A stretch of 64,000 bases of DNA from contig CP060231.1 of the NCBI GenBank assembly GCA_023898625.1, positions 148,258-212,257 of the forward strand, given 5' to 3'. The position numbers and the translations under genes are program-made. The notes below the pieces were generated by a model. That model was not told the origin of the DNA. It saw only the letters and a program-made list of their open reading frames with translations, and searched no databases. This stretch comes from Candidatus Nomurabacteria bacterium (GTDB taxonomy: Bacteria; Patescibacteriota; Saccharimonadia; Saccharimonadales; JAGQNJ01). Shown here piece after piece: positions 3,219 through 55,665 of this stretch. Positions within the stretch are counted from its first letter, which is position 1. Each line of letters starts with the position of its first letter.

Positions 3219-3254
3219 ATATTCGACCTTTCTAAAATTAAAAACACTCCTTTT

Positions 3255-3410
3255 AGCTATCGGAATCCCAGCGTACTAGGACGGTACCATCCGATTTCTA
3301 AAAGAAGTGCTTATCACTTTTTTAGCTCTTATTTAACGGCTGTTACGGGCTTACCCGGCGAGGTCTACTTGTCTAACGACTTTCTTCTTGCTACTTCGTG
3401 GTTGATAGCC
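3255..3410. ncRNA. Candidate structured RNA of unknown class in a 257-nt intergenic gap
   Basis: GC looks higher than the flanks. Closing helix GCTATC (3256-3261) / GATAGC (3404-3409). Internal hairpins: CGGG-loop-CCCG, AAGTG-loop-CACTT and GGATG-GTAC-CGTCC. The only ORF here (3198..3464) has no convincing coding features. Strand undetermined. Confidence 0.25.
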
Positions 3411-3475
3411 ACTCATCCAAACTGGAACGTATTTACACAATCAGTTTACAATAAACAGAGGTAATTAACAAGTTT

Positions 3476-3742
3476 TTACTTAACTTCACCATATGCTGAA
3501 AGTTCATTAATTAACGGTAATGGATTTCCACTCCATTTCTGCAACAAAGACCCACCGTTATCTAATGCCAAAAAAATTGGATGATCTAACACATCGTATA
3601 GCTTCATTTTTGAGATTCCATCTGGAGTATCAATATTTAACAACTCGATATCTTTGCCTGTACGATCGTGAAACTCGCGTACATACTGTTCAACTCCTCG
3701 AGCAAATTCTGAATTTGGTCGATAAAGCACAATCAGTTTCAT
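3476..3742 (-). CDS. Small hypothetical protein downstream of nrdJ (no cysteines)
   Basis: 88-aa ORF, same strand as nrdJ and 88 nt downstream of it. No CxxC motif, so it is not a redoxin. No recognisable motif. Confidence 0.5.
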   Translation of the reverse strand: MKLIVLYRPNSEFARGVEQYVREFHDRTGKDIELLNIDTPDGISKMKLYDVLDHPIFLALDNGGSLLQKWSGNPLPLINELSAYGEVK

Positions 3743-3829
3743 ACAGTTTAGTGTACCACAGATAACTGTAATTATCTGTAAGGTTCGGTGCGACTTTACC
3801 TAAGCACCGAACCTTACTATTTATGTCTT

Positions 3830-6601
3830 CTAGCTACATCCTGTGGTGCTACCACAACTGGTGCACACGTAACAGCTACCTGAACGCTGAGTTTGGTTGC
3901 CACAATTAAAACAAAGTGGAGCATTATCATCCTTGATAGATGCTTGCTTATTACTAGCTTTTGCCTGTTTTACCATTTCGATTGGTAAGCTTATCGTTTC
4001 CGTAGCAACTTCTTTTGAATCTACTGTATCAACTTCTGGTTCGTCAATCAGCGAAGTTTGCTCTTCTGGCATATCATCAATTGACGCTAATCCAAGCTCT
4101 AAGCGATCATCAAATGGCAGATAATCAAGAGCTAATCTTCTAACTATATAATCTGTTATAGAAGTAGCTGTTCGAATATCCACATCATCCGTAATTCCTG
4201 CTGGCGCAAAACTAGTGCCACGCAAAGTCTTAACATAACTCTTTAGTGGAACCCCATACTGCAACCCGTGACTCATAGATATGGCAAACGAATCCATTAA
4301 TCCAGACAGGGTTGAGCCTTGCTTTGAAATGTTCACAAATACTTCACCTGGTGTACCATCGTCGTATTCCCCAACAGTAAAGTATCCGTCCAGGTCGGCA
4401 ATTTCAAAGTGATAGGTCTTACTGGCGCGTACTCGTGGTAGCTTTCGTCTTACGGCACCCTTAACTACAATCTTATCTTCGTTTGACTGAACAGGTGCAG
4501 ATTCTGTTTTTTCGGATCCTTCTTTCTTGGCCATAGATAACGGCTGGGCTACTTTACAGTTATCTCGATAGATTGCCACCGCCTTTAATCCAAGCTTCCA
4601 TGACTCTATATGTAATTGCTCAACATCTTCGACGCTAACATCTTCAGGCATATTTACTGTCTTGCTAATCGCCCCAGACAAGAATGGCTGAACGGCGCCC
4701 ATCATCTTTACATGACCCATATAATGAATAGCATTATCACCCATTGAACAAGCAAAAACAGCCAGGTGCTCCTTCTTGATGTGTGGCGCACCGATAATAG
4801 TTTTTTCGGTATCTATATAGTCGATAATTGCGTCAATTTGCGACTTATTATAGCCTAGTGTTTTTAGTGCTCGCGGAACTGTTTGGTTAACAATATGCAT
4901 GGTACCACCGCCGACTAGCTTCTTGACTTTCACAAGACCTAGGTCTGGTTCGATACCTGTTGTGTCGCAGTCCATCATCAGACCAATGGTTCCTGTTGGA
5001 GCCAAAACGCTAGCCTGCGAATTGCGCACGCCAAACATATTCCCCAGCTCAACTGCATCATCCCATGACTCTGTTGCGGCACTCAAAAGATCTTCAGACA
5101 CTAAACCAGCGTCAATATTTGAAACTTCTGCGCGATGCATCTTAAGGACTTTCAGCATTGCCTCGCGATCTTTATGGAACCCACTGAATGGTCCGACTCT
5201 TCTGGCGATCCTAGCACTCGTTGCATATGCATGACCCGTCATCAGCGCAGTAATTGTTGCAGCCTGAGCACGACCTTCATCAGAGTCATAAGGCAAGCCC
5301 TGTGCCATCAATAATGCCCCAAGATTTGCATAACCTAAGCCAAGTTCTCTGTAGGCACGTGCATTTTTTCCTATACCTTCTGTTGGATATTCCGAATAAC
5401 CAACTAGTATTTCCTGTGACGTAAACATCACCTCTACGGTATGCTTAAAGGCTTCTATATCAAACGTACCGTCTTTATTTAAATATTTAAGCAAGTTAAT
5501 GGAGGCAAGATTACATGCAGAATTATCAAGGTGCATATATTCACTACATGGGTTTGAAGCATTAATGCGCCCGGCGTTTGGTGCAGTGTGCCATTTATTG
5601 ATAGTTGTGTCGAACTGCATACCCGGATCTGCACACTCCCAAGCCGCCTCAGCAAATTGGCGCATCAATTTACGAGCCTTTATCGTTTTAACTGTTTTAC
5701 CAGTTGTAACCGCTTTTAGGTCCCAGTCTGCATCGTCAACCACTGCTTGCATAAATTCATCTGTTACGCGAACAGAATTGTTGGCATTCTGATATTGCAC
5801 AGAAAATGCATCTTTACCATCCAAGCTCATATCAAATCCAGATTCTTGCAGTACCCTAGCTTTCCGCTCTTCAATTGCCTTTGCCCAGATAAATTCTTCT
5901 ACATCTGGATGATCGGCGTTTAAAATAACCATCTTGGCTGCACGTCGTGTTTTGCCACCACTTTTAATAGCTCCAGCAGAAGCATCTGCGCCACGCATAA
6001 AACTCAATGGACCACTAGCCGTACCAGCGCTCTTGCCTAGCTTCTCTGCAGATGATCGAATTGGACTCAGGTTAACACCAGAACCAGACCCACCCTTAAA
6101 GATCATTCCCTCTTCTTTATACCAATTTAAAATTGCTGGCATTGTATCCTCAATACCCAAAATAAAACAAGCACTAGCCTGTTGAGATCTATCCGTAGCG
6201 CCAATATTAAACCAAACTGGTGAGTTAAAAGATGCTCTTTGGGTTGCCAAAATATACTTTAACTCTTGCTTAAAATCTTCTGCTTCCTCTTTAGATTCAA
6301 AGTAATCTTCTTGCAATCCTTGTCTAACTATCGTGTCGGCCACCCGGTTAATCAAATCACGCAGGCTATTTTCGCGCTCATCAGTACCCGGGGTTCCAGA
6401 AAAATACTTTTGCGCAACAATATTTATTGCGTTAACCGACCATCCATCCGGAAATTCAACGCCTCTTTGTTCAAAAACATTGACGTTTGTTATCGGATTA
6501 TTAATAATCGAGTCTCTTTTTACCCATTTTAATTGATCGTATGCTTTAGTTTTGGGCTTCGTAAAGAAGCGACCAACACCCAGTGTAGTTGTTTGTCCCA
6601 T
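3830..6601 (-). CDS. nrdJ: Class II (adenosylcobalamin-dependent) ribonucleotide reductase
   Basis: 923-aa ORF. Blocks NPCSEY, TGTIGLMMDCDTTGIEP and AVAIYRD. Cys-rich C-terminal tail CFNCGNQTQRSGSCYVCTSCGSTTGCS typical of monomeric NrdJ. Confidence 0.95.
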   Translation of the reverse strand: MGQTTTLGVGRFFTKPKTKAYDQLKWVKRDSIINNPITNVNVFEQRGVEFPDGWSVNAINIVAQKYFSGTPGTDERENSLRDLINRVADTIVRQGLQEDYFESKEEAEDFKQELKYILATQRASFNSPVWFNIGATDRSQQASACFILGIEDTMPAILNWYKEEGMIFKGGSGSGVNLSPIRSSAEKLGKSAGTASGPLSFMRGADASAGAIKSGGKTRRAAKMVILNADHPDVEEFIWAKAIEERKARVLQESGFDMSLDGKDAFSVQYQNANNSVRVTDEFMQAVVDDADWDLKAVTTGKTVKTIKARKLMRQFAEAAWECADPGMQFDTTINKWHTAPNAGRINASNPCSEYMHLDNSACNLASINLLKYLNKDGTFDIEAFKHTVEVMFTSQEILVGYSEYPTEGIGKNARAYRELGLGYANLGALLMAQGLPYDSDEGRAQAATITALMTGHAYATSARIARRVGPFSGFHKDREAMLKVLKMHRAEVSNIDAGLVSEDLLSAATESWDDAVELGNMFGVRNSQASVLAPTGTIGLMMDCDTTGIEPDLGLVKVKKLVGGGTMHIVNQTVPRALKTLGYNKSQIDAIIDYIDTEKTIIGAPHIKKEHLAVFACSMGDNAIHYMGHVKMMGAVQPFLSGAISKTVNMPEDVSVEDVEQLHIESWKLGLKAVAIYRDNCKVAQPLSMAKKEGSEKTESAPVQSNEDKIVVKGAVRRKLPRVRASKTYHFEIADLDGYFTVGEYDDGTPGEVFVNISKQGSTLSGLMDSFAISMSHGLQYGVPLKSYVKTLRGTSFAPAGITDDVDIRTATSITDYIVRRLALDYLPFDDRLELGLASIDDMPEEQTSLIDEPEVDTVDSKEVATETISLPIEMVKQAKASNKQASIKDDNAPLCFNCGNQTQRSGSCYVCTSCGSTTGCS

Positions 6602-26124: not shown

Positions 26125-26134
26125 ATTTCTATAA

Positions 26135-26251
26135 TTCGGCACCGTGCTATTTTCCCAGGGCTTGATGACCCAAGTATTGTAACCGCAGAGAGGCTTAACT
26201 GCTGTGTTCGGCATGGGAACAGGTGTTTCCCTCTCGCTATGGGCACCGACC
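26135..26251 (-). rRNA. rrf: 5S ribosomal RNA
   Basis: Reverse complement reads TCGGTGCCCATAGCGAGAGGGAAACACCTGTTCCCATGCCGAACACAGCAGTTAAGCCTCTCTGCGGT...GCACGGTGCCGAA. It carries the CCCATGCCGAACACAG and GTTAAGC 5S blocks, and the terminal helix pairs. Confidence 0.9.
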
Positions 26252-26756
26252 TGGTATTTTGTACCGTTTATATCTGTTTCCAGCAAAGCTAAAACTCTGA
26301 TATAAGCTCTGAGTAAATCGCTTCATCAGTAACGCTCGTCACTCGCTTCTCGCTACTTCCTTGCGCTTCATCTCAGTACAAAAATCCAGGACTGATGTCC
26401 AAATTACATTTTGCATGATAGATTGTTAACAAACACGGATATGTACACGTTGTGTGATACACACCAATAACTAGCCAATTGTCCATATTTTCTAAAGTCA
26501 CACCTCTGTTAAATTACTTTAACATTGATTGTGGCTTTAGTTCATAAAAAGTCGATGGATCTATTAGTACGCTTTGGCTGAATGTATTGCTACACGTACA
26601 CCTTGCGCCTATCAACCTGATCGTCTTTCAGGGATCTCCATAGGGAAATGCAATCTTGGGATTAGTTTCGCGCTTAATATGCTTTCAGCGCTTATCTAGA
26701 CCGCACTTAGCTACCCAGCAATGCCTGTAGGTCAGACAACTGGTACACCAGCGGTG

Positions 26757-26789
<33 letters not shown>

Positions 26790-26825
26790 TTCCCTCACAT
26801 TTCCTATTGTCCACATCGGATATAA

Positions 26826-26859
<34 letters not shown>

Positions 26860-26887
26860 ACGTACCTCTTTAACCGGCGAACAGCCG

Positions 26888-26918
<31 letters not shown>

Positions 26919-26977
26919 AGATGAGCCGACATCGAGGTGCCAAACAGCGCCGTCTATGTGAACTATTGGGCGCTATA

Positions 26978-27010
<33 letters not shown>

Positions 27011-27688
27011 TGCGTTGCCGATTCCACACTCATATACATAATGTATGGACAACGGGTCACTTACTCCCACTTTCGTGCCTGCTTGGCTTGTAGGCCTCAC
27101 AGTCAAGCTGGCTTATGCGTATGCACTATCACTACGATTTCCATCCGTAGCTAGCCAACCTTTGAACGCCTCCGCTACTCTTTAGGAGGCAACCGCCCCA
27201 GTTAAACTACCCACCAGACACTGTCCTCGAACCGGATAACGGTCCAAGTAAGAACAAAGTAACAACAAGGGTGGTATTTCACTGAAGACTCCACCATCGC
27301 TAGCGCGTTGGCTTCATAGTCTCCCACCTATGCTACACATGTTGTCACCCAGCTCAATGTCAAGCTGTAGTAAAGCTCCACGGGGTCTTTTCGTCCTGAT
27401 GCGGACAGACGGCATCTTTACCGCCAATGCACTTTCACCGAGTCCCTTCTTGAGACAGTACCCATATCATTACTCCATTCGTGCGGGTCAGAACTTACCT
27501 GACAAGGAATTTCGCTACCTTAGGACGGTTATAGTTACCGCCGCCGTTCACTGGGGCTTCAGTTCGCACCGTGAAGCGCTCCCCTTAACCTTCCAGCACC
27601 GGGCAGGAGTCAGCCCCTATACATCCACTTTCGTGTTAGCAGAGACCTGTGTTTTTGGTAAACAGTTGCTTGGGTTCTTTCGCTGCGG

Positions 27689-27835
27689 CCCCGTCACCAT
27701 ACTTACAAGTCGGTTAACGAAGCACAAGCTTCCAGAATTAATTTGTTTTGTCTCGATTTATCTCGATAGAATCATATATTTTAACTCTATTAATCTTGAA
27801 AACTTGGCTAGTCACTTATAAACATAGTGACGGGG
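27689..27835 (-). other. 23S insertion/expansion at the helix-63-equivalent site (about 147 nt, AT-rich)
   Basis: Bounded by CCCCGTCACCATA / TATGGTGACGGGG-type pairing (rc: GCCCCGTCACTATG...TATGGTGACGGGGC). Located between the conserved CCGTAACTT...AGG and CAACTGTTTACCAAAAACACAG blocks, where E. coli has about 50 nt. Confidence 0.8.
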
Positions 27836-28848
27836 CAGACCTTATCCCTAAGTTACGGTCGCTGTATTGCCGAGTTCCTTGACGAAGAATCACTCGTACA
27901 CCTTGGTCTTCTCGACCTGAGCACCTGTGTCGGTTTGCGGTACGGGCGGCCATAGACACACGCTTGGAAGCTTTTCTAGTCAGTACTTTCACAAGAATCA
28001 AGCCCGTAAGGGCCCTTTCATTCCCACTTATTAAGGTGGTTAGACGGGTATAACCATGAACCCGCTCTTACTAATATACCGCGCACTCCAAGCAATCTAT
28101 AACCGGTACAGGAATATTAACCTGTTGTCCATCGCCTACGCTACGCGCCTCGGCTTAGGCCCGACTAACCCTGGGACGATTACCGTGGCCCAGGAAACCT
28201 CGCTCTTTCGGTGGGCAGGATTCTCACCTGCCTTATGGTTACTCATTCCAGCATTCTCACTTGATACCACTCCACCAGACCTCGCAGTCTGACTTCAGCG
28301 CTGATATCAACGCTCCTCTACCACTGTACAAAGTACAGTCCACAGCTTCGGTAATACACTTAGCCCCGTTACATTTTCCGCGCGGGATCTCTTGACGAGT
28401 GAGCTGTTACGCACTCTTTAAATGAATGGCTGCTTCTAAGCCAACATCCTCGTTGTCCAAGAAATCCTACCTCGTTTCCCACTTAGTGTATATTTAGGGA
28501 CCTTAGCTGGTGGTCTGGGCTGTTTCCCTTTTGAGCGTGGAGCTTAGCCCCCACGTTCTAACTGCCGTAGTTCCACATTCCGTATTCGTAGTTTGTCAAG
28601 GGTGGGTAATCTTGCGACCCCCAGTCCGAAACAGAGCTCTACCCCAGAATGCTACCGTACGACGCTAGCCCTAAAGCTATTTCGAGGAGAACCAGCTATC
28701 TCCAGGTTCGATTGGCATTTCACCGCTAACCACAGGTCATCCGGGCGTGTTGCAACTCGCTACGGTTCGGTCCTCCACGCAGTTTTACCTGCGCTTCAAC
28801 CTGCCCATGGTTAGGTCACCTGGTTTCGGGTCTACTCCTATATACTCT

Positions 28849-29010
28849 AGGCATATCCTCGCTGGACAAAATATGTCTGTGAGCACAGATCACAAGGTTT
28901 TGACTTTGTAAAAGTTTTTTAACGTATTGACTTATACGTTTCAAAAATTTTACTTTGTCAAAATCAGTGTTATGCGTTCACAGGCTGTTTTGCTCAGTGA
29001 GGATATGCCT
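28849..29010 (-). other. 23S intervening-sequence-like insertion at the helix-25 site (about 160 nt)
   Basis: Inserted between GAATAGGGCG and AGTAGACCCGAAACC. Closed by AGGCATATCCTC...GAGGATATGCCT. An internal long hairpin is GACTTTGTAAAAGTTTTTT...AAAAATTTTACTTTGTC. Confidence 0.8.
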
Positions 29011-29439
29011 TCGCCCTATTCAGGCTCGCTTTCACTACGCCTCCGCCAAATGGCTTAAGCTCGCATATAAGAATAACTCGCTGGATCGTTCTACAAAAAG
29101 CACGCCATCACCCCGAAGGGCTCTGACTCCTTGTACGCACATAATTTCAGGTTCTATTTCACTCCCCTCCCGGGGTTCTTTTCGCCTTTCCCTCACGGTA
29201 CTTGTTCACTATCGATCATAAGATATATTTAGCCTTGGAACGTGGTCGTCCCAGATTCAAACAGGGTTTCTCGTGTCCCGTTCTACTCGACAATAATAAA
29301 TATAAGGTTGCGAATACTTAACATACCGGGCTATCACCGTCTTTGGCTAGTCTTTCCAGACTATTCTGCTCGCTTCGCAATTTCTGACCTTATGCAAGTT
29401 CGTGGTAGCACTTGCTTCCACTACGGATTTCCTAAATAA

Positions 29440-29640
29440 TTTAGGCTCTCCGTAGTAGTTGTTTACTATGTCACAACCCCTGTAATACATTCGTCTACCA
29501 ACTTATCGGATATAAGACAAAACCTACGGTTTTTTCTTATCGCGCCAGGCAAAAAATGCGATTTTTGCTTGGGCTTATCTTATTCCCTATAACAGGACCA
29601 TAAGCTTAATCCCATATCCGAAGTATTAAAGGTTTGGGCT
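29440..29640 (-). other. 23S domain I insertion (about 170 nt extra)
   Basis: Lies between GTAGTGGCGAGCGAAACTGGAATAGCCCAAACC and TCTGGAAAGACTAGCCAAAGACGGTGATAGCCCGGTA (rc). E. coli has about 80 nt here, this gene about 250. Confidence 0.75.
29513..29578 (-). repeat. Two-hairpin module, copy inside the 23S domain I insertion
   Basis: Plus strand TAAGACAAAACCTACGGTTTTTTCTTATCGCGCCAGGCAAAAAATGCGATTTTTGCTTGGGCTTATC aligns with 34232-34295. Confidence 0.7.
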
Positions 29641-30122
29641 ATTCCAGTTTCGCTCGCCACTACTCCCAGAATCATTGGTTATTTTCTCTTCCTCGAGGTA
29701 CTAAGATGTTTCAGTTCCCCCGGTTCCCTCTTCTTACCCTATGTGTTCAGATAAGAGTTACTAGGCATGACCCCAGTAGGGTTTCCCCATTCGGAAATCT
29801 TCGGTTCAAAGCTTGTTTGACAGCTCCCCGAAGCTTATCGCAGTCTACTACGTCCTTCATCGGTATCTTATGTCAAGGCATCCATTGTGTGCGCTTGAGT
29901 AACTTTTTATGAATATATGTATGCATTTGGCTAGTTATTGGTTAGTACCAATAAATGCCGTGCTTGTCTTTACATCTATCTCTAAATCTCTAAAATCTTG
30001 ATTGTTAAGTTTCTAAACTCACGCTAATCATACCCATACAATAATGATTATGATCGTTTCTTGAGTTTACATTTGAAGTCGATTCCTCTAGACCTCTGAT
30101 CTAAACTCAAGATAGCTATACA

Positions 30123-30151
30123 AGTTTATCAACTAAAACAGAGGTAGTCAA
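30123..30151 (-). promoter_or_regulatory. Sigma-70-like promoter candidate for the 23S-5S unit
   Basis: Minus strand TTGACT (30151-30146), 17-nt spacer, TAAACT (30128-30123), about 180 nt upstream of the 23S processing stem. Confidence 0.4.
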
Positions 30152-30220
30152 CCATATTTTAATGTAATCATTACCACACTATAACTACTGTTAATTACTT
30201 TTCTAGCACGACTCCTGGAA

Positions 30221-31378
30221 TTATTGCTCCCAACAAGCCCAAAGTATTTTTTCTGTAACTGCATAGTTTTCAGGCTTCTTCATTGCCATTCTACCCTTAC
30301 TCTTAGCATCCGGACAAGCACCAGTTGCATTACCTCTGTATTCTACCTGACCAACCCACAATCCTTTGTTCGTGGCTGGATTCAAATCATCGCATTCACC
30401 GTATTGCTGACATTCTTCATTAAGAATCCCGTCTGGCACACACAGACCTGGTTTACAATAGACAATACCAGTAGGTTCTGTCACCTGTTGGTCTGTTAAT
30501 TCCACGCCATTCTTGCTAATGGCAGTTAACCCTCTTTGGTGAGCTTGATAATAATACTCACGATACAGTCGTAATGAATGAGCTTCAGTAATATTAAAGG
30601 TTTTATCGTTTCCGTAACTATTAATCTGATCGCCCTCAACACCATCACAGCCAATTTTTTTTGCTACATCAAGACGAGCCCACATAATCGGTGCCCAATA
30701 TTGCCAAGAATTTTCTTTAATATCCATCCAATACTCACCCTCAAAAGTACCGCCGGCTGAATCTTCTGATGTTCCACCAATAACATCTACATTTGCATAT
30801 GATGCTGGCCCATTGTATGGAATACTCCCCCGGCTATTATTTCCTGAGCCCCACTTTCCAGGAAATAGCGAAGCATCTGGCTCATATGTCTCATAAGCCC
30901 CTATATCCATATAACAAATAACCTTTTTTCCAGATGACTTAAGAGCTGTAAATGCATCTGCATTCTTGCCTTTTGGCCAAGTTACTGTTCTTGTCTCTCC
31001 ATTAGCCCAAGTTACCGTTTGGGTAGTATTGCCTGGGATTGCATCAGTAAGATCAATATCCCACATATCGAAGCGATTAAGATTAGCTGCATCTACGGTA
31101 ATACCACCTTCAAGAACCCACTGCCAGCGGGTATTTTGAGCTGGTTTCCACCAAGAGCTTTGAGATGCTTGTCCAAATTTTATAGCTTTTCCGCCAGAAG
31201 CAGACGAATCTGCAATTACTAATTTACTGTCAGCCCCTTTTTCTGCTTCAATTTCAATCGAATATGTTCCAGCTTTAGCGACTAAAATGGCAATAAATCC
31301 AATTATGGCAATGAATAATATTACAAAAATCTTCTTATTTTCTATTAATTTTCTAAGGCTAATTTTAACTTTTTTCAT
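30221..31378 (-). CDS. Secreted/membrane-anchored glycoside hydrolase family 114 (endo-alpha-1,4-polygalactosaminidase-like)
   Basis: 385-aa ORF with N-terminal TM helix. GH114 blocks RWQWVL, MWDIDL, KKVICYMDIGAYETYEPD, GEYWMDIK and GCDGVEGDQINSY. Confidence 0.78.
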   Translation of the reverse strand: MKKVKISLRKLIENKKIFVILFIAIIGFIAILVAKAGTYSIEIEAEKGADSKLVIADSSASGGKAIKFGQASQSSWWKPAQNTRWQWVLEGGITVDAANLNRFDMWDIDLTDAIPGNTTQTVTWANGETRTVTWPKGKNADAFTALKSSGKKVICYMDIGAYETYEPDASLFPGKWGSGNNSRGSIPYNGPASYANVDVIGGTSEDSAGGTFEGEYWMDIKENSWQYWAPIMWARLDVAKKIGCDGVEGDQINSYGNDKTFNITEAHSLRLYREYYYQAHQRGLTAISKNGVELTDQQVTEPTGIVYCKPGLCVPDGILNEECQQYGECDDLNPATNKGLWVGQVEYRGNATGACPDAKSKGRMAMKKPENYAVTEKILWACWEQ

Positions 31379-31505
31379 AATCTCTATGACTAGCTTTATT
31401 ACCGAAATTTATTTATCGTATAATAATATAGTATCACGCTCAAGCTAAAATAGTCACTACTATTGTTTTAGTGGTCAAATTGATGTAAAATTACTCGAGT
31501 AATTT

Positions 31506-31582
31506 GGGGCGTTAGCTCAGTTGGCTAGAGCACCTGCTTTGCAAGCAGGGGGTCCGGGGTTCGAGTCCCCGACGCTCCACCA
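31506..31582 (+). tRNA. tRNA-Ala (anticodon UGC), CCA encoded
   Basis: GGGGCGTTAGCTCAGTTGGCTAGAGCACCTGCTTTGCAAGCAGGGGGTCCGGGGTTCGAGTCCCCGACGCTCCACCA. Cloverleaf folds, with the G3:U70 Ala identity pair. Confidence 0.95.
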
Positions 31583-31601
31583 AATTACTATTTATGATTT
31601 A

Positions 31602-31678
31602 GGGCGATTAGCTCAGCTGGTTAGAGCGCGTCACTGATAATGACGAGGTCGGAGGTTCAAGTCCCTCATCGCCCACCA
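31602..31678 (+). tRNA. tRNA-Ile (anticodon GAU), CCA encoded
   Basis: GGGCGATTAGCTCAGCTGGTTAGAGCGCGTCACTGATAATGACGAGGTCGGAGGTTCAAGTCCCTCATCGCCCACCA. Cloverleaf folds with one A-C mismatch in the T stem. Confidence 0.92.
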
Positions 31679-31687
31679 TTTAAAGAA

Positions 31688-31708
31688 GCCACCCTAGGGT
31701 GGTTTTTT
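31688..31708 (+). terminator. Rho-independent terminator after tRNA-Ile
   Basis: GCCACC-CTAG-GGTGGT hairpin followed by TTTTTT. Confidence 0.7.
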
Positions 31709-31710
31709 AA

Positions 31711-31862
31711 ATGGTCGGTGCTGTGGCTTGAATATTCGACACTTGAGGTCGGAGGGGAGAACTGCCTGTGGCAGTTTGGACGGCAATCTTCTCTTGAAAA
31801 CTTGTTTTCAAAGATGAAGTTGTGGGGTCGCCAGAGGTGACCGAGTCCCTCATCGCCCACCA
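31711..31862 (+). ncRNA. tRNA-Ile-derived pseudo-tRNA carrying a conserved ~95-nt three-hairpin module (copy 1)
   Basis: GAGGTCGGAGG (identical to the tRNA-Ile variable/T-stem region), then the module, then GTCCCTCATCGCCCACCA (identical to the tRNA-Ile 3' end). The module aligns with the reverse complement of 54569-54700. A plus-strand terminator follows at 31885-31908. Confidence 0.45.
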
Positions 31863-31884
31863 TCAAATGGATTTTTTAAGAATT

Positions 31885-31908
31885 GTCGCTTTCACGAGCG
31901 ATTTTTTT
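31885..31908 (+). terminator. Rho-independent terminator downstream of the tRNA-like element
   Basis: GTCGCT-TTCACG-AGCGAT hairpin followed by TTTTTTT. Confidence 0.6.
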
Positions 31909-31947
31909 CTTTTGAATTTAGAAGTAGCCTGATCGGGTCACCTAGAC

Positions 31948-33045
31948 TTACAGCCCAAAGCATTCCATTGACTGTGCCAAATGGGTTTTGCCAGTTTCAA
32001 TTTTCTCACGCATAAAGTCGGTAGGTTCCCAAGAATAACGACGCAAACGCAGTGTCATTTTTGACACAACATAGCGCAAGCGCAGTAACTCAAACTTGTC
32101 ATCAAAGTCGTTAGACTTTTGGACAACCGAAAAATAACCGTCCAAGAAACCTTTTAGACGCTCAGGTTCAAAAAAGGTACTCCAACAAGCAATGTCACTC
32201 TCTGGTATTCCGCCAACACACTCGTCCCAATCCAAAATACCCGTAATACCCTGCCCATCAGTCAATAAGTTCCAGTCAGCAAAATCATTGTGTACCAAAA
32301 TCGCTTCGTTCGAGTCTAGTAAAGGATTGCTATCAAATAATTTTGCTATTGCTTCGGCTTGTTGCTCGGTCAATATGCCGTATTGCTTCAATACATCAAT
32401 ATTAAATGGCAAACCTGCGCGGACGGCTTCGCCAAAAGTCTGGTGTAAACCAACCAATTCGCCATTTTTGGCTTTTTCATTATCAAATGCACCAAAACCA
32501 CTAACTTTTATTTGATGTAGTCGTGCCATCTCCTTGCCAATTTCTGGCAATAGTTTGGCCTCGTCGTCAGGATGTGTTTCCAACCATTTTTTAATTGCGT
32601 ACCCAGGCAATTTATCTATCACTTGAAAAGCAAAATCATCTCCGCCTTCATAATCGTGAATAGCGAGCGTGTCATAACTAGGCGAACCTGCTTCTTTGGC
32701 TTTTCGTGCGGCGACCGCTTCGGCATGGAAGTAGCCGTTTTTGACACCTCTAGGGTGGCAACGGATCACTACTTCTTTGCCAGTCGCCAAGCGACCAACT
32801 CGCACAGAATTTACATTGCCCAGATTTGTTTGTGCATCTAGGTCTAGTGGTTCAATATCGGTCAAACCGTCACGCCCGAGCACTCCATTTACTTTATTGA
32901 GCAGTTCATCATCTGTAAAATATCGATGACGGTCTGCCCAGATATGTCCAGCCTGTTCAGGCTCAATAGCTCGGTCAGTCTGCCAGTAAAAGACATCGTG
33001 CCTGTCGGCAATTTGGGCGTTTATTTTATCCATATCAAGATTCAT
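31948..33045 (-). CDS. Aminoglycoside/choline-kinase-type phosphotransferase (APH family) protein
   Basis: 365-aa ORF. The catalytic loop LVHNDFADWNLL and GILDWDE are the Brenner / DxD motifs of APH-like kinases. GC looks higher than neighbouring genes. Confidence 0.75.
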   Translation of the reverse strand: MNLDMDKINAQIADRHDVFYWQTDRAIEPEQAGHIWADRHRYFTDDELLNKVNGVLGRDGLTDIEPLDLDAQTNLGNVNSVRVGRLATGKEVVIRCHPRGVKNGYFHAEAVAARKAKEAGSPSYDTLAIHDYEGGDDFAFQVIDKLPGYAIKKWLETHPDDEAKLLPEIGKEMARLHQIKVSGFGAFDNEKAKNGELVGLHQTFGEAVRAGLPFNIDVLKQYGILTEQQAEAIAKLFDSNPLLDSNEAILVHNDFADWNLLTDGQGITGILDWDECVGGIPESDIACWSTFFEPERLKGFLDGYFSVVQKSNDFDDKFELLRLRYVVSKMTLRLRRYSWEPTDFMREKIETGKTHLAQSMECFGL

Positions 33046-33054
33046 ATTTACAAC

Positions 33055-33855
33055 TCATTTCAAAGTAAACCCGCCGTCAACAGCAAGAATTTGCCCAGTT
33101 ATAAAAGAAGCATCGTCTGATAGTAGAAAAGCAACAGCGGAAGCTATTTCTTCGGGCTTTCCCATGCGTTTAATGATAGAAAGGTCTGTTGTCCAGCTAG
33201 GGTCTTCGCCTGTGCTTTTGGTCAGGGGAGTATCGACCAAACCGGGGGCAACCGCATTGACACGAACAAGCGGCTCATTGTACTTGCGAGCAAACGATTT
33301 TGTAAGTGAGATAATACCCGCTTTGGTAGACGAGTAAATTACTCCGTAAGGCTCGCCAATTATGCCGTCAACTGATGTTAGCGCAACAATAGCACCGTCT
33401 TTAGATGTTTCTTTGATTAGCGCACCAAGTAGCTTTAAGGTGCTGAAAGTACCTTTCAGATTTACATCTATAGTGCGACTTATATTTTCGTCTGTAATGT
33501 CGTCAATTCCAGCGGGGAGTGGTAGTACCCCCGCATTTGCTACAAGCAAATCAAGATGACCAAACTCATCTTTTATATGTTGCCTCACTCGTTCCAGCTC
33601 AGCTTTATTGGAGATGTCGGCAGCAACGAAGCGGACTCTTGCTAAGTCATTAAATTGCTCCAAAACCGATTTATCTGATTCACTTGGCGAATTCAGAATT
33701 ACGGTAGCACCGTCATTAAAAAGTCTGTGTGCTATCGCTAAGCCGATGCCTTGTGTTGAACCTGTTACTAACGCTACTTTATTTAGAAAACTCACATCCC
33801 AATTATAACACATTTCAACCCTGTTATAATTCACAAACATAATCATGAGAGCCAT
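33055..33855 (-). CDS. Short-chain dehydrogenase/reductase (FabG-like SDR)
   Basis: VALVTGSTQGIGLAIA (TGxxxGxG), NAG and the YSSTKAG catalytic motif. The true start is probably the internal Met near 33813. Confidence 0.85.
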   Translation of the reverse strand: MALMIMFVNYNRVEMCYNWDVSFLNKVALVTGSTQGIGLAIAHRLFNDGATVILNSPSESDKSVLEQFNDLARVRFVAADISNKAELERVRQHIKDEFGHLDLLVANAGVLPLPAGIDDITDENISRTIDVNLKGTFSTLKLLGALIKETSKDGAIVALTSVDGIIGEPYGVIYSSTKAGIISLTKSFARKYNEPLVRVNAVAPGLVDTPLTKSTGEDPSWTTDLSIIKRMGKPEEIASAVAFLLSDDASFITGQILAVDGGFTLK

Positions 33856-34231
33856 CTACAAAATAATCAACCTCAGAAAACCATCTATAACTAAAAGGAA
33901 TTCGGCGAAAAAGGATCTAAAAGATACAAAAAAGACTTATTCAGAAAGGCTTGTGTTTTTTTAGTTATTCTACATATTGAATTTGTACAACGTTATAAAA
34001 TCTACCAAATCCTCATAATAATCTGTCTGAATACCTTTAACTTTAAGAATACTTGATTTTAAAAAAGAGCCCTCTCGCAAATGGGCTCTTTTTAGTTATT
34101 TAAAAACTGGGTAGTGCAATTATCAACGCAAGATCTGGTTAGCACTGCGGATCGTCCTGCTTGCAGGAAAATACATTGTCAGTACTGATCACAATGTATC
34201 GATATCGACCTAGCTATCACGCTTCGCTAAT

Positions 34232-34295
34232 GAAACAAACCTACGGTTTTTCTCATCACGCCGGCAAAATGGTTCACATTTTGTCGGGTTGCTCT
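34232..34295 (-). repeat. Two-hairpin module, copy in the 16S 3' trailer
   Basis: Plus strand GAAACAAACCTACGGTTTTTCTCATCACGCCGGCAAAATGGTTCACATTTTGTCGGGTTGCTC aligns with 29513-29578. Both hairpins are retained with compensatory changes. Confidence 0.7.
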
Positions 34296-34338
34296 TTCCC
34301 CTTTTAAAAGGAACAAAACGGATGCTAGAAACTCCCTA

Positions 34339-35837
<1,499 letters not shown>

Positions 35838-35925
35838 AATTTGAAGCAAATCACTGACTTAAAATGAACCTAAAATAAACGCTGACGGCGACGCCGTACT
35901 ACGATTACCATGCCTTCGACATGAG

Positions 35926-35963
35926 GTTCATCCTGAGCCAGGATCAAACTCTCCAAAAAAATT
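35926..35963 (-). repeat. Perfect 38-nt duplicate of the 16S 5' terminus, located in the leader
   Basis: GTTCATCCTGAGCCAGGATCAAACTCTCCAAAAAAATT occurs at 35804-35841 (the true 5' end) and again at 35926-35963. Confidence 0.95.
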
Positions 35964-43138: not shown

Positions 43139-46100
43139 CCCTGCTTGTTTGAGATATTGCCATCATTATCGATAGTTATCTCGTCATTTCCCAGTTTACT
43201 TAAGTCGATCTCTCCTGTTCCCTTGTCGACATCTTTAGCGTCCTCTTCGCCCTGAGTATTTGAAATACCTGGATTTGTTGTCAACCTAGATTTATCCTCG
43301 ATACCTACTTCATCCTTTCTTGGTTGAATAGGTGTAAATACCTGACCTGCACTAGTTGGTGGTTTGGATAATAATGAATCCTGTTGAGGTTGAGGTTGAG
43401 GTTGAGGTTGAGGTTGAGGTTGAGGTTGAGGTTGAGGTTGAGGTTGAGGTTGAGGTTGAGGTTGAGGTTGAGGTTGAGGTTGAGGTTGAGGTTGAGGTTG
43501 AGGTTGAGGTTGAGGTTGAGGTTGAGGTTGAGGTTGAGGTTGAGGTTGAGGTGCGACCTTCTTCTTGGCCAACCATTCATCAAGGAATGACTTCGGTTGT
43601 ACTGCTTTAGGAGCTGTAGCTTGCTGAGGTGATGCCATCTGATTATTCGAACCAAATTGACCACCTACCCCAGATGCTGGCCTTGATCTAGGTATGCTAG
43701 ATGACGATCCGAACGCTGTTTTGGGAGGTTCCTTGGTGGATAATCGTGCAAAGATCTCCTCTTCTACTTTTGCTTTTGGACGCCCGTATTTAGCCGCTGA
43801 CAACTGTTTTAAGGCGCTTGATAGCTTTTCATTAGGTTTTCCTAGTGTTGGCAGTGTAGCCATACTAAACGGTTGTGTAGGTACTCCGCTGATCAATGTT
43901 CTAACAATGGTATTGAAATTTGGGACACGTAGCAAATCATCACCATCAAATAATGGCTGAAAGTATCTAGACAGCGTATCTACGTCATTCTGACCAATCC
44001 TAAACGAAACAATTGTACCAATATTACCAAAAACTGCTTCTCGAATCTCATCTGTTAATTGGGTTGTAAACTGGTTGGCAACAACCAAATTAAGGTGATA
44101 CTTTCGCGCCTCTGACATAATTGTAGCAAATGAGTCTGTTGAGAAGTTCTGAAACTCATCTACATACAAACAAAAATCTTGTCGTTGATCTTCAAGAATA
44201 TTAGCTCTACTCATAGCTGCTGCCTGAAATTTCATAACAAAAATCATACCTAACAACCTAGAGTTTAATTCACCTGTCTTTCCTTTACTGAGATTAACTA
44301 ATAGAATCTTTTTGTTGTCCATAATATCCCGTAAATCAAACGAGCTTTTAGTCTGACCAATGATATTTCGCATCATTTCATTACTTAAGAACGCTCCGAA
44401 CTTGCTGACAACCCAAGCAATGACTTCGCCTGAATCATTTGATCTCTGTGAATTAGGCCATTCTTTGGTCCAAAAATCGATAACATTTTGATCTTCAACA
44501 TACTGAAGTTTCTCCTTCATGAATGGAGGGTCAATTAACAATTTAGGAATATCTACAAAAGTACCACCTTTAGGGTCAGACATAAGTAGTAGCGCCGCAT
44601 TGGTATATATCCTCTCAAAGCGTGGCCCAACAATACCTTGTCGTTGTGGGTCATACAACTTATATAGCATATTCAATGTCTCTTGAACTAGGAAATCCTT
44701 CTGTTCAGGAGTATAGAATTCAAATAGATTTAGGCCCATAGGGTACTCCATATCTGATGGACAAAAATACATAATGTCTTCGGTCCTCTCCTTTGGAACC
44801 ATTGACAGTAACTTCTCTGCTGTATCGCCATGAGGATCAACAAAAGCAAAGCCATCACCATTTAACATGTCTTGTAATGCTAGATTTTCGAGAAATGTTG
44901 ATTTACCAGTACCTGTTTGTCCAACAACATACATATGTCTTTGTCGGTCACTCAAACTTAACCTAATCGGCTTTTTGGCGCCCCTAAACAAGTTGTATCC
45001 TAGCAATAAGCCATCATCAGGCATATTCCTTGGCGCATCAACCTGCTTCGATGCTTGTCTCTCTAGCTGTGAAGTTGGGATGTTTTTTTGATCTGGGAAG
45101 TGAAAGATACCAGCAAGCTCTACTGAGTTTAAAATATTCTTAGTCATTGATGGAGGAAAAAATCTGAGTATGTACGATGTTACAAAACTATCAATATCTT
45201 TTGCTTGCGTAAATTTAAATCCATTCCTGCCTGGTGCATCATACAATGAGAATGATGCTACGACATGATTCAAGATTGTCTGTGACTTCTGCGAGACATT
45301 AGATGATGCTACGATACGAATAAGAGTTTCATATCCAGGATGCCTAGTCTTATCATCAATGGCATCAAGTACAGACTGCTCCATGTTTGATAGATCAGGT
45401 TTGTCAGATCCACTATCTTTATTACCTTTATCTTCTGGTGGCTTCCATAAGGCAACAAATATTTGCTTAATCCACCAAAAAGCTTCTTCTTTTGGCTTGT
45501 TGCCTCCCTTACCCTTTCTTTTTGAGCTGGCAATTTCAGATGCTTGTTTACGCCAATTTGGGTTTGCTGGCCTCATTAATATCTGTATTCCTACGCCATC
45601 TTCATTATCCAATTCAGCTAAAGCATTTAGTAATGACTGAATGGGGTCTCTTTTTATATCTTGATAGGTTGCTATCGGATAAGCAAATGACTCTTTAAGC
45701 GTTAATTCACCTCCAGTTGTAGCAGCAATTTTTCCAACCGGGCTAAATATATTATGTTCCTCCACCTCTTCTAATCGCGCTGTAGGATACGAGCTAATTA
45801 CAGCCTGCTTAACTACATCAACTAAAGCAACCGGAACAGCGGCATAAAAATTAACGAAACCCTTAACCCCAATAATTTCGAAAGCAAAGTGTCTCTGTCC
45901 ATAGAATTTTGATTTCAACCCCTTTTTCATGGTACTTGCAATAATTCCGTACATAATCTGAGCTTTTGATATATTCTCATCAATAACTTCTCGATCATCA
46001 CGCCCACCCGAATCTTTGTCGTCGCTGGATGGAGGAAGATGGATTAGTAACGGGACCATTTTGAGTCCACGCTCATAATTCTTTTGTTCACGCAATAAAT

Positions 46101-51230: not shown

Positions 51231-51232
51231 GT

Positions 51233-51672
51233 ATGCCAGCCTATCTATAAGCCGGGTTCTGTTATTACTAGTCATCTATCTAGTCTACAAATTGCTTTGC
51301 AGATCAAGCGGGTTTCACGCGCATATCTAGCAGGATACTAATGTACAAAACGCACAATATGATACGCTACCTTGCAACAGACAGGGTTTACCTTTTGGTT
51401 ATGTCGCCATAATCAACTGTAGGCTCTTACCCTACTCTTTTCAACTTTACCTCGTATCCATTACTGGTATTCTACTCAATATATAACCGATATCAGCAAA
51501 GGATACGAGGCCGTCTTGTTTCTGTGGCACTTTCCCTAGAGTTACCTCTGGTTGCTGTTAGCAACTGCCCTTCCTTATGTTGCCCGGACTTTCCTCTCTG
51601 TACTTATGACCATCAAGCTAATTCCATCATTAATAGCCTTAAGTACAGAGCGACTAGTCGATAACCTGGCAG
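51233..51672 (-). ncRNA. rnpB: RNase P RNA (bacterial type A)
   Basis: Reverse complement contains CAGAGAGGAAAGTCCGGGCAACA (P4 5' strand), GGGAAAGTGCCACAGAAA, GGGTAAGAGCC and ACAGAACCCGGCTTATAGATAGGCTGGC (P4 3' strand plus P1 pairing with the 5' GCCAGGTTATC). Confidence 0.9.
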
Positions 51673-54521: not shown

Positions 54522-54546
54522 AGAAAAAACGGCGCATTTGCGCCGC
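54522..54546 (-). terminator. Rho-independent terminator of the tRNA-Pro transcription unit
   Basis: GGCGCA-TT-TGCGCC hairpin (54531-54544), followed on the minus strand by GTTTTTTCTTT. Confidence 0.7.
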
Positions 54547-54568: not shown

Positions 54569-54717
54569 TGGTCAGGGTAAGAGGACTTGAACCTGCGACC
54601 TCACGGTCACCTCCGGCGACCCCGAAACTTCTGCCTTGACAGCATAGCTGTCAGGTGAAGATTTCCTTGCAAACTGCCACTGGCAGTTCTCACCCCAGCC
54701 GTAAAAGGGGTCCCTAT
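54569..54717 (-). ncRNA. Degenerate tRNA-Pro-like gene carrying the ~95-nt three-hairpin module in its anticodon loop (copy 2)
   Basis: Reverse complement: TAGGGACCCCTTTTACGGCTGGGG-[module]-CCGTGAGGTCGCAGGTTCAAGTCCTCTTACCCTGACCA. The last 26 nt are identical to tRNA-Pro. No D-arm. There is no terminator between it and tRNA-Pro. Confidence 0.45.
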
Positions 54718-54730
54718 GAAAATTTATAAA

Positions 54731-54807
54731 TGGTCAGGGTAAGAGGACTTGAACCTCCGATCTCCGGACCCCCAGCCCGGCGCTTTAGCCAACTAAGCTA
54801 TACCCTG
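54731..54807 (-). tRNA. tRNA-Pro (anticodon GGG), CCA encoded
   Basis: Reverse complement CAGGGTATAGCTTAGTTGGCTAAAGCGCCGGGCTGGGGGTCCGGAGATCGGAGGTTCAAGTCCTCTTACCCTGACCA. Cloverleaf folds, with the C1:G72 pair and G37 typical of tRNA-Pro. Confidence 0.9.
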
Positions 54808-54823
54808 TTATCCATTTATAAAT

Positions 54824-54866
54824 CTTCATGGGATGAATGCGTGCTAGCCAACTGCGCCACACCCTG
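54824..54866 (-). pseudogene. Orphan tRNA 5' fragment (acceptor 5' strand + D-arm + short hairpin)
   Basis: Reverse complement CAGGGTGTGGCGCAGTTGGCTAGCACGCATTCATCCCATGAAG. The acceptor strand could pair with the TACCCTG at 54573-54579. No T-arm or 3' acceptor strand follows. Confidence 0.5.
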
Positions 54867-55038
54867 ATAAGACAAAAGTCAAGCTATCACCCTTGATTAA
54901 TCTGATTTATCTAGGTGGGTCTTCGCACACATAAACCACGATTTATATGATATAAAAATCCCTATCAGATGGTGTTAGATAATCATAGACGGATGATAAC
55001 CTGACAAACAATATTATACCCCTATACCAGCATCCTTT

Positions 55039-55665
55039 CTATAGTAATACTTGAAAGAAAAAATTGTTTAAGTAGTTCACGACTGGAACAAGTAAAGGAA
55101 ATAGCACAAACATGAAGATAAAAATACCAATTAAACCAAAAGATTCAATCTGTTGCATTACCTTTCTTAGTGGATCTGGAGCAAACGCATACAGAACACG
55201 AGATCCATCAAGTGGCGGAAAAGGAATCATATTGAACACAAAAACTGCAATATTTAGCTGAATAAACATACTGCAAAATTGATAAATTGTTGTACCTACT
55301 GCAACACCCGAAAGGCGTATTATAGACACACCAACAATAGCAAGCAAAAAGTTACTTAACGGACCAGCCAGCCCTACAAGTGCCGCCCCGTAGTCACCAT
55401 ACTTAACTCTATACGGATTGAATGGCACTGGTTTTGCGATTAAGAATGGTGGCATTCCGAGCAATAATAAAACTAAAGGTAATATTATTGTTGTAAATGG
55501 ATCTACGTGCTTTAATGGATTTAACGTTAGCCTACCCAAATCTTTTGCTGTTGTATCGCCTAGCCAATGAGAAGCAAAGGCGTGCATTGCTTCATGAAAA
55601 CTCAGAGAAATTATAAGCATGAGCAAGAAAATTAGTATTCCGGATAAACCAAGTTCTGTAAGCAT
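55039..55665 (-). CDS. Site-2 protease family (M50) membrane metalloprotease
   Basis: 208-aa polytopic ORF with HEAMHAFASHWLGD (HExxH within a TM helix) and PLDGSRV. Confidence 0.8.
   Translation of the reverse strand: MLTELGLSGILIFLLMLIISLSFHEAMHAFASHWLGDTTAKDLGRLTLNPLKHVDPFTTIILPLVLLLLGMPPFLIAKPVPFNPYRVKYGDYGAALVGLAGPLSNFLLAIVGVSIIRLSGVAVGTTIYQFCSMFIQLNIAVFVFNMIPFPPLDGSRVLYAFAPDPLRKVMQQIESFGLIGIFIFMFVLFPLLVPVVNYLNNFFFQVLL

Follow-up and report, generated by a model that had tools for sequence, protein, structure and literature searches.

Transfer RNA (tRNA) genes can be interrupted or occupied by other sequence in several described ways. Archaeal tRNA introns, both canonical and non-canonical, lie at position 37/38, in the D-arm, in the variable loop and in the T-loop, and the T-loop and anticodon loop are the classical crossover sublocations for genomic islands. 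Islander islands in tDNA are defined by a regenerated target together with a displaced fragment of the target gene (PMC4383910), and for Caldiarchaeum a model exists in which introns are gained and genes disrupted via the integration of mobile elements (PMC3293823). In the Patescibacteria, tRNA group I introns are ribozymes of at least 200 nucleotides (nt) with a group I core, which lie at sites 33/34 to 36/37 and have been shown to self-splice (PMC13011429). Here we describe a short folded module that is present twice in a 64,000-nt stretch of the genome of a Candidatus Nomurabacteria bacterium of the Saccharimonadia (GenBank GCA_023898625.1, contig CP060231.1, positions 148,258 to 212,257; hereafter the window, whose own numbering is used throughout), once beside tRNA-Ile (copy 1) and once beside tRNA-Pro (copy 2). 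Modules of an undescribed family interrupt partial gene copies across Saccharibacteria, affecting a third to a half of the tRNA genes as well as transfer-messenger RNA (tmRNA). We refer to the partial gene copy as a stub and to the stub with its module and accompanying repeats as a unit.

Fold and distribution of the module

Genomes were scanned, one per species, with the exact pattern of the first hairpin (H1) of the module. The scan returned at least 120 stretches, the great majority from metagenome-assembled genomes of Saccharibacteria/Saccharimonadales, and the remainder were chance matches within genes of unrelated bacteria. All counts given for the family (136 pattern matches, 89 genuine copies and 56 scored units) are among the matches listed and represent lower bounds. 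Nearly all of the 89 genuine copies are from Saccharibacteria (about 100 Saccharibacteria loci). A covariance model made from an alignment of 59 type A family members detected exactly two copies in the window, with 101.9 and 93.9 bits, the next match scoring 12 bits.

The consensus of the 59 aligned copies consists of three hairpins. In copy 2, H1 reads AACUGCC-AGU-GGCAGUU and H3 reads GGUCGCC-GGA-GGUGACC; H2 is long and irregular and contains a bulged A. The loop and closing pairs of H1 are near-invariant, and the sequences of H1 and H3 are unrelated. Paired cells made up 96% of the alignment compared to 79% after shuffling, and the covariation score was 0.457 compared to 0.149, with none of 500 shuffles reaching the observed value. 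Compensatory changes were found in 19 of 31 pairs, and those in H1 also occur in copies found by the model, which are free of the bias of the search pattern. A wobble pair in H3 is G·U in 53 copies, G-C in six and A·C in none. It follows that the fold is selected on the tRNA-sense strand, either as RNA or as single-stranded DNA.

Strong strand-specific covariation speaks for one alternative to a mobile element, which we consider possible though unlikely: the units could be functional RNAs that act in cis to tRNA genes. According to this explanation, a decoy half-tRNA with its module would be joined in a read-through transcript by an antisense arm able to pair either with the decoy or with the real tRNA, and this would tune the folding, processing or turnover of the tRNA (or of an upstream 6S-like RNA), while the module would be a protein- or ligand-binding domain.

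Searches with Rfam 15 at gathering and at permissive thresholds (E<=10) gave no family match on either copy and only tRNA in both regions. Phage and plasmid collections held no match to the module, and viral contigs yielded chance matches only. In the literature, searched by sequence and by topic, no description of the module was found, and the only related work found concerns the group I introns in tRNAs of Patescibacteria. Sibling classes that share an H1-type hairpin are the longer type B, type C and type D. Type C lies behind tmRNA and duplicates its 3' end at no fewer than six loci (L011, L034, L069, L086, L103, L109). Type D (L023, L074, L075) lacks the inner flank, the module being joined directly to the inverted arm on one side and to the 3' stub on the other.

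Copy 2 in a dead tRNA-Pro(GGG) gene

Copy 2 lies on the minus strand at 54603..54694 (92 nt; cmsearch 101.9 bits, E=4.5e-22), the module proper spanning about 54692-54607 and forming an insert of ~86-92 nt. The first-pass annotation of this DNA had placed it at the anticodon loop of a degenerate tRNA-Pro(GGG)-like gene, and each minus-strand piece from which that gene had been assembled could be located between 54716 and 54569: TAGGG (54716-54712), ACGG (54702-54699), CTGGGG (54698-54693) and, beyond the module, CCGT (54606-54603), followed by GAGGTC-GCAGG-TTCAAGT-CCTCT-TACCCTG-ACCA with its end at 54569.

The history of the locus can be read from an empty site. In the orthologous locus L141, whose neighbouring protease is 88% identical, the conserved upstream RNA is followed by one intact tRNA-Pro(GGG) gene (Pro-2) and then by the terminator of the window. 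Alignment with L141 showed that the pieces ascribed to an anticodon arm are exactly that: ACGG, the 5' strand of the anticodon stem, and CTGGGG, loop positions 32-37, together correspond to Pro-2 positions 27-37 (54693..54702, minus strand; identical in the intact Pro-2 of L141, L003 and L110), and positions 39-77 (CCGTGAGGTCGCAGGTTCAAGTCC...ACCA) resume after the module at 54569..54606 on the same strand, in their native context and with the native terminator next. The D-arm had been reported as missing, whereas it was found, together with the 5' acceptor strand, displaced to 54839..54866 (minus strand; Pro-2 positions 1-26, CAGGGTGTGGCGCAGTTGGCTAGCACGC), upstream of the working tRNA-Pro. Between the displaced 5' part and the anticodon arm lies a second insertion of 136 nt at Pro-2 26/27 (54703..54838, minus strand), which is absent from L141 and carries the working tRNA-Pro(GGG) gene, Pro-1, intact at 54731..54807 on the minus strand (ARAGORN; Rfam tRNA 63.4 bits). 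Since the alignment yields three pieces, the gene was broken twice, by the module at 37/38 and by the 136-nt insertion at 26/27. Thus, copy 2 of the module occupies position 37/38 of the ancestral tRNA-Pro(GGG) gene of this locus, which is now a dead gene in three pieces.

ARAGORN and Rfam called only 54731-54807 as tRNA-Pro(GGG) at this locus, and ARAGORN recognised a tRNA-Pro(ggg) when the three Pro-2 pieces were joined and one G was restored. Pro-1, which is separated from ACGG-CTGGGG by a spacer of 28 nt, is a different allele from the split Pro-2 gene. The last 26 nt of the stub are nevertheless identical to the working gene (26/26, 54731-54756), as had been noticed before. Considering that the sister strains L001, L004, L006 and L007 keep the Pro-2 ending CCTGTCACCCCGACCA, this identity reflects a secondary conversion of the stub to the neighbouring working tRNA-Pro. 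Stem mismatches of the host differ between strains: the window has C50·C64 in the T-stem, the single C·C mismatch in GCAGG/CCTCT that was already on record, and L001 has A2·C71. Judged by these mismatches, the split Pro-2 host shows no selection as a tRNA.

These findings bear directly on the proposal that the module is a new small tRNA intron, whose removal from the precursor, autonomous or protein-dependent, would leave a working tRNA. There are points in favour of such an intron: module insertion is always in sense orientation where this could be scored, a host stem closes the module, and the Patescibacteria are rich in introns (PMC13011429). However, when the module was removed in silico with every plausible boundary and the product passed to ARAGORN, removal of the module alone gave a complete host in none of the 136 pattern matches and in none of the 56 scored units. 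In the window, the host is additionally split by 136 nt, its T-stem is broken, and an intact tRNA-Pro(GGG) is present. Across the family, one to three nucleotides of the target are replaced by the module rather than merely separated or duplicated, and an intact gene copy stands beside every scored module-bearing stub. No group I or group II signature was found. The expectation that the insert is excised to yield a tRNA was therefore not borne out, and we regard such an intron as very improbable.

The earlier observation that the insert differs from group I introns did hold up. The module shares with the group I introns of Patescibacteria the phylum and the kind of host gene, with the anticodon loop of a tRNA as the site. 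It differs in having 86-92 nt and three independent hairpins, in giving no Rfam group I match, and in occupying 37/38 and other arms. A likeness to archaeal tRNA introns is also seen, as these comprise related short inserts at 37/38, D-arm, variable loop and T-loop of many tRNAs with tRNA fragments nearby, whereas the modules are found in a bacterial organism and in truncated hosts with an intact gene alongside. A bulge-helix-bulge motif was not evident at the junctions (..GG|UGAGAAC, GUGAC|C..), which were read by eye only. Among ribozyme cores (hammerhead, group II and others, likewise inspected by eye), CUGAUGA occurs only in some H2 variants, and a 5' GUGAG is present but no domain V/VI; ribozyme cores were rejected as candidates.

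Probable transcription of the tRNA-Pro complex

In the window, promoters and terminators were called by a pattern (consensus) scan. A promoter-like site, TAGAAA-17-TATAAT, is located on the minus strand at 55013..55041, ahead of a 6S-like RNA and the tRNA-Pro complex, and its -10 box is invariant across five orthologous loci. The unit is closed by an intrinsic terminator at 54529..54546 (minus strand), which is conserved after the intact gene in L141. It is the single terminator found by the scan, so the absence of a terminator between tRNA-Pro and the module, as described previously, was reproduced. The further claim of co-transcription with tRNA-Pro is plausible in view of one promoter-like site and one terminator on this strand in the scan, and copy 2 is probably a passenger in the transcript of the 6S-like RNA/tRNA-Pro unit.

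The 6S-like RNA itself is a conserved RNA of ~130-150 nt (54880-55005, minus strand) between the M50-protease gene and the tRNA-Pro complex, with the invariant TATAAT upstream. It matches the Rfam 6S RNA below threshold (22.2 bits with a gathering value of 46.4, E=0.008, best stretch 54894-54985), is conserved in L141-L145, L189 and L208, and is probably the 6S RNA of this lineage. In many Saccharibacteria, tRNA-Pro(GGG) comes after this RNA.

The 136-nt insertion is bordered by imperfect inverted repeats of ~20 nt, read from the sequence on the minus strand (TCCCATGAAGATTTATAAAT, 54833-54814; ATTTATAAATTTTCATAGGGA, 54731-54711), and it may be a portable tRNA gene cassette. The Pro-1 allele type also adjoins Pro-2 stubs in L189 and L208, where it is placed after position 48 of the old gene; in L189 short inverted repeats are seen again.

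Variants of the tRNA-Pro locus in related strains

The comparison of orthologous loci that had been suggested as a check gave a module-free, intact tRNA-Pro in L141. The locus is not a decaying duplicate with unrelated filler, the outcome named beforehand as refuting the intron idea: the supposed filler is a conserved, covarying module. Strains with an identical neighbouring M50-protease protein share the arrangement of the window, and differences begin just beyond it. L001 has an insert of 1.6 kb (4098-5706) exactly after the ACCA of the stub, with two open reading frames (ORFs) to which no function was assigned. In L003, a second tRNA-Pro(GGG), the intact Pro-2, lies downstream of the module, and in the same locus a segment with an rve-type transposase (2650-5095) adjoins the stub. 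The H2 hairpin has been swapped between near-identical strains (L003 and the window). L005 is 100% identical to the window up to the first hairpin and continues with a type B module and the 3' end of a different tRNA (GAATCCCTCCTCCTCCGCCA; 3974-4100), which points either to recombination between modules located at different loci or to a chimeric assembly.

In other relatives, the orthologous tRNA-Pro is inverted (L142, 3330-3410) or no tRNA is found at this place (L144, L145). Hence the tRNA-Pro(GGG) that follows the 6S-like RNA is itself an unstable gene among related species.

Copy 1 and the recurrent architecture of the units

Copy 1 lies on the plus strand at 31754..31844 (cmsearch 93.9 bits; blastn 80% over 91 nt to copy 2). 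The T-loop position attributed to it earlier was recovered, as it sits between tRNA-Ile positions 44-54 and 59-77 of a 3' stub. All parts of this unit are on the plus strand. The intact tRNA-Ile(GAU) at 31602..31678 (ARAGORN, Rfam) is directly followed by a palindromic terminator-like hairpin (31689-31702), a degenerate inverted copy of tRNA-Ile 77-47 (TGGTCGGTGCTGTGGCTTGAATATTCGAC, 31712-31742; local alignments, z=4.1 against shuffles) and a sense copy of positions 44-54 (GAGGTCGGAGG, 31745-31755; local alignments, within 31712..31755). After the module come positions 59-77 (GTCCCTCATCGCCCACCA, 31845..31862), with a terminator next at 31885-31902. An empty site for copy 1 was sought in relatives and not obtained, as synteny around tRNA-Ile is not conserved.

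Copy 1 is a unit of the downstream type, whose order for a tRNA gene X is intact X, palindromic terminator, inverted X(77..~43), X(~43-54), module, X(56-77) and terminator. In the upstream type, X(1..p) comes first and the module second; then come the 8-14 nt of X that follow p, a fold-back, a spacer resembling a promoter and finally the intact X. Both flanks of the module match the adjacent intact tRNA in 56 units. The stub lies downstream of the intact gene with the module in the T-loop in 37 of these and in the anticodon loop of tRNA-Pro in two; upstream stubs carry it in the D-arm (13 units), in the T-loop (three) or in the anticodon loop of tRNA-Pro (one). Anticodon-loop sites are thus confined to tRNA-Pro (3/56). 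Outside the 56, hand-reading of two tRNA-Val units gave a variable-loop insertion with p = position 46.

The frequency of such structures was estimated by searching for partial copies of a tRNA's own end within 330 nt, with reversed sequences as control. In module-bearing loci, 62 of 108 tRNAs had such a copy and none did in the reversed controls; among tRNAs not next to the index module the proportion was 13 of 38. In the window, two of the four tRNAs are affected.

Several features of the units speak for functional RNAs in cis. About a third to a half of the tRNAs are affected, the antisense arm always lies between decoy and real tRNA, and the outer 21 nt of the downstream stub are usually identical to the real tRNA (21/21) while the antisense arm decays. 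Upstream units have -10 boxes of their own, and the order 6S-like RNA, Pro stub with module, real tRNA-Pro (Pro-2 or Pro-1) recurs in several species. The sequence to which the inverted arms are complementary is that of an uninterrupted tRNA, and the arms are significant (median z of 4.2 against shuffles). Against a regulatory role, their quality differs between units, some being near-perfect and others undetectable (z from 12 to 0), and downstream units lie behind a strong terminator-like hairpin without a promoter of their own. Moreover, relatives manage without the unit, there being none in L141 and no tRNA at the locus in L144 and L145, and the other two window tRNAs have none either.

Further structures are hard to square with a regulator. 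Stubs occur in tandem arrays behind one tRNA, and in L023 and L037, inspected by eye, the farther stub is the more decayed. Two to three modules can lie within one pseudo-tRNA (L113, L100), and a type A module is nested in a type B module in L027. A different structure is seen in L157 (11259-12664) and L214, where a cargo of 1.3-1.6 kb lies between direct repeats composed of tRNA-Lys 69-77, terminator, inverted arm and the first 30 nt of the module; the cargo encodes a putative acetyltransferase, assigned by sequence motifs only, and a zinc-finger-like ORF.

Comparison with islands and small repeats

Among the known systems, the module units work most like tDNA-integrating islands but fail their defining feature, an integrase. 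As in islands, the 56 units show a split target, a regenerated intact gene and, marking the boundary, a displaced fragment. T-loop, anticodon loop and tmRNA are used in both, and fragments pile up in tandem behind the gene. In contrast to islands, the units measure 150-250 nt, and the displaced part is the 3' part in 39 downstream units while the 5' part is kept in 17 upstream units. The units also hold an inverted copy of the target.

We therefore weighed the explanation that the units are scars of integrase-driven islands in tRNA and tmRNA genes, the module being an island arm left by the attachment core after deletion of the island. A regenerated target with a displaced fragment is the hallmark of islands (PMC4383910), tmRNA is among the targets, variable DNA adjoins stubs (the 1.6 kb insert in L001, the transposase-bearing segment in L003 and the L157 cargo), and there is an archaeal precedent that ties island integration to intron gain (PMC3293823). 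Yet most units are gene-free at their small size, and one module family is found at more than 20 different tRNAs and in four sublocations. Units with a 5' fragment would require an island carrying a promoter and the 5' part of a tRNA. The module lies inside the would-be core, between the halves of the T-stem or anticodon stem, and not beside it. Its fold is conserved on one strand only, as seen in the G·U and A·C counts above, and insertion into another module as well as the negative phage, plasmid and viral searches likewise argue against island scars, which we consider rather improbable.

Small interspersed repeats such as REP/BIME, rickettsial RPE, BOX and Correia elements resemble the module in being multi-copy, gene-less, hairpin-rich, non-autonomous and modular, and rickettsial RPEs can sit inside tmRNA. 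Unlike these repeats, the module is associated near-exclusively with tRNA and tmRNA genes, lacks terminal inverted repeats and target duplications, and goes along with a partial duplication of its target. Neither the hallmarks of a MITE nor a REP palindrome with a linked RAYT were seen, H1 and H3 being unrelated and target nucleotides being replaced and not duplicated. Four further candidates were set aside. A guide-RNA scaffold (TnpB/IscB/Cas12-like) whose guide matches the tRNA does not agree with a tRNA-derived flank on either side, the two flanks being contiguous in the tRNA. For an IS110 bridge-RNA-like element there is no recombinase, and the flanks are too long and too regular. Spread by homologous recombination via conserved T- or D-arm motifs is at odds with flanks that match the local tRNA beyond the motif. 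Finally, a simple triplication of the Fork-U-turn (DUP-INV-DUP) kind does not fit as the origin, given that the two terminators within a unit show no sequence relationship.

Integron attC sites and the hairpin attP of CTX-phi, which is used by XerCD, offer a resemblance of another kind: structure is conserved above sequence, and features are strand-specific. Like folded attachment sites, the units have two inverted arms that mimic a duplex target with a spacer of ~90 nt. The best-preserved stub is nearest to the tRNA in the two arrays inspected by eye, as expected if new units enter beside the primary site. The units differ in having no R/L boxes, dif-like sites or linked IntI, and the comparison goes no further than resemblance.

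A small non-autonomous mobile element as the favoured explanation

We favour, with moderate confidence, the explanation that the module forms the core of a mobile element, small and non-autonomous, that is distributed throughout Saccharibacteria and whose insertions are seen only where an intact gene has been kept or regenerated. The tandem arrays, the nested insertion, the multiple modules per pseudo-tRNA and the recombinant copies are the reasons for this preference. The swapped H2, the cargo flanked by unit repeats and the relatives with an empty site or no tRNA also count for mobility.

From these observations we infer the following course of insertion. The elements would colonise exposed loop positions of tRNA and tmRNA genes, that is, the D-arm/26 junction, 37/38, the variable loop and the T-loop, and the three-hairpin fold would presumably be recognised by a machinery acting in trans. 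As an insertion would destroy its target, only configurations that keep an intact gene would survive. The usual survivor would be a partial duplication, in which the stub still holds the outer gene end along with the promoter or terminator native to it, and in which the inverted 'antisense' copy would mark the join of the duplication. In the window, copy 2 would have entered the ancestral tRNA-Pro(GGG) at 37/38 long ago and would have survived by a different way, namely through a further tRNA-Pro(GGG) gene that was inserted into this ancestral gene as well.

Several points weigh against a mobile element. The units, which contain no ORF and have housekeeping genes as neighbours, have no transposase, integrase or reverse transcriptase linked to them; a Pfam search of the ORFs next to stubs gave nothing informative, and no recombinase domain is present in the ORFs of the L001 insert. 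Neither terminal inverted repeats nor target-site duplications were found in the units, and the regular short inner flank (8-15 nt) together with the inverted arm fits no known insertion chemistry. Some positions are common to several species (tRNA-Pro 37/38 after the 6S-like RNA; the tRNA-Val variable loop), and this could just as well mean that something useful has been retained over a long time. For junk, it is surprising that many such units persist in streamlined genomes of ~1 Mb. Finally, the sampling of loci required the H1 pattern, which entails an ascertainment bias.

A more far-reaching possibility, which we put forward tentatively and regard as doubtful, is that the units are either an element with its own target mimic or a lineage-wide cis-regulatory layer on a third to a half of the tRNAs. 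In the first version, the inverted arm and the sense flanks would fold like the T-arm/acceptor duplex of the target, with the module at the crossover point. Such a unit would serve as a folded attachment site, or as a homing guide, complete in itself and operating via a single-stranded RNA or DNA intermediate, and by analogy it would be something like a bacterial counterpart of the mobile archaeal tRNA introns. In the second version, decoy, antisense arm and tRNA would form a three-way switch in reduced genomes. Either of the two, if true, would be a new kind of system.

Other features of the window

In addition to the two modules, the window shows a further duplicated gene end. The first 38 nt of the 16S rRNA with its leader (AATTTTTTTGGAGAGTTTGATCCTGGCTCAGGATGAAC) are duplicated exactly 122 nt upstream (35804-35841 and 35926-35963), with 84 nt of unrelated filler between the duplicates, a layout of stub plus intact gene like that at the tRNAs and without a module. 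The rRNA genes are unlinked (26134-35837): a gap of 4.4 kb with three protein genes (SDR, APH-like kinase, GH114) separates 16S and 23S, and tRNA-Ala and tRNA-Ile are on the opposite strand. The 23S gene measures 3367 nt compared to a model of 2925 nt, implying insertions of ~440 nt, and the RNase P RNA (51232-51669) measures 438 nt compared to a 367-nt model. A perfect tandem array of ~28 copies of the hexamer GTTGAG was found at 43383-43550.

Implications for tRNA genes in Saccharibacteria

Whichever explanation holds, the 92-nt fold is a well-supported new RNA motif with a covariance model and many loci, and tRNA annotation in Patescibacteria would improve with it. If the module is mobile, it would be the core of a compact element that is directed at a cell's most highly conserved genes but spares an intact copy next to every insertion, and a large proportion of the tRNA 'fragments' and of the assembly breaks in genomes of Saccharibacteria would be explained by it. 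Should the units instead be functional RNAs, the tRNA supply of these episymbionts would be under a previously unseen cis-acting layer. The units would also serve as a bacterial model of the interruption and splitting of tRNA genes and of their acquisition of introns, a question that has so far been argued mainly from archaeal data.

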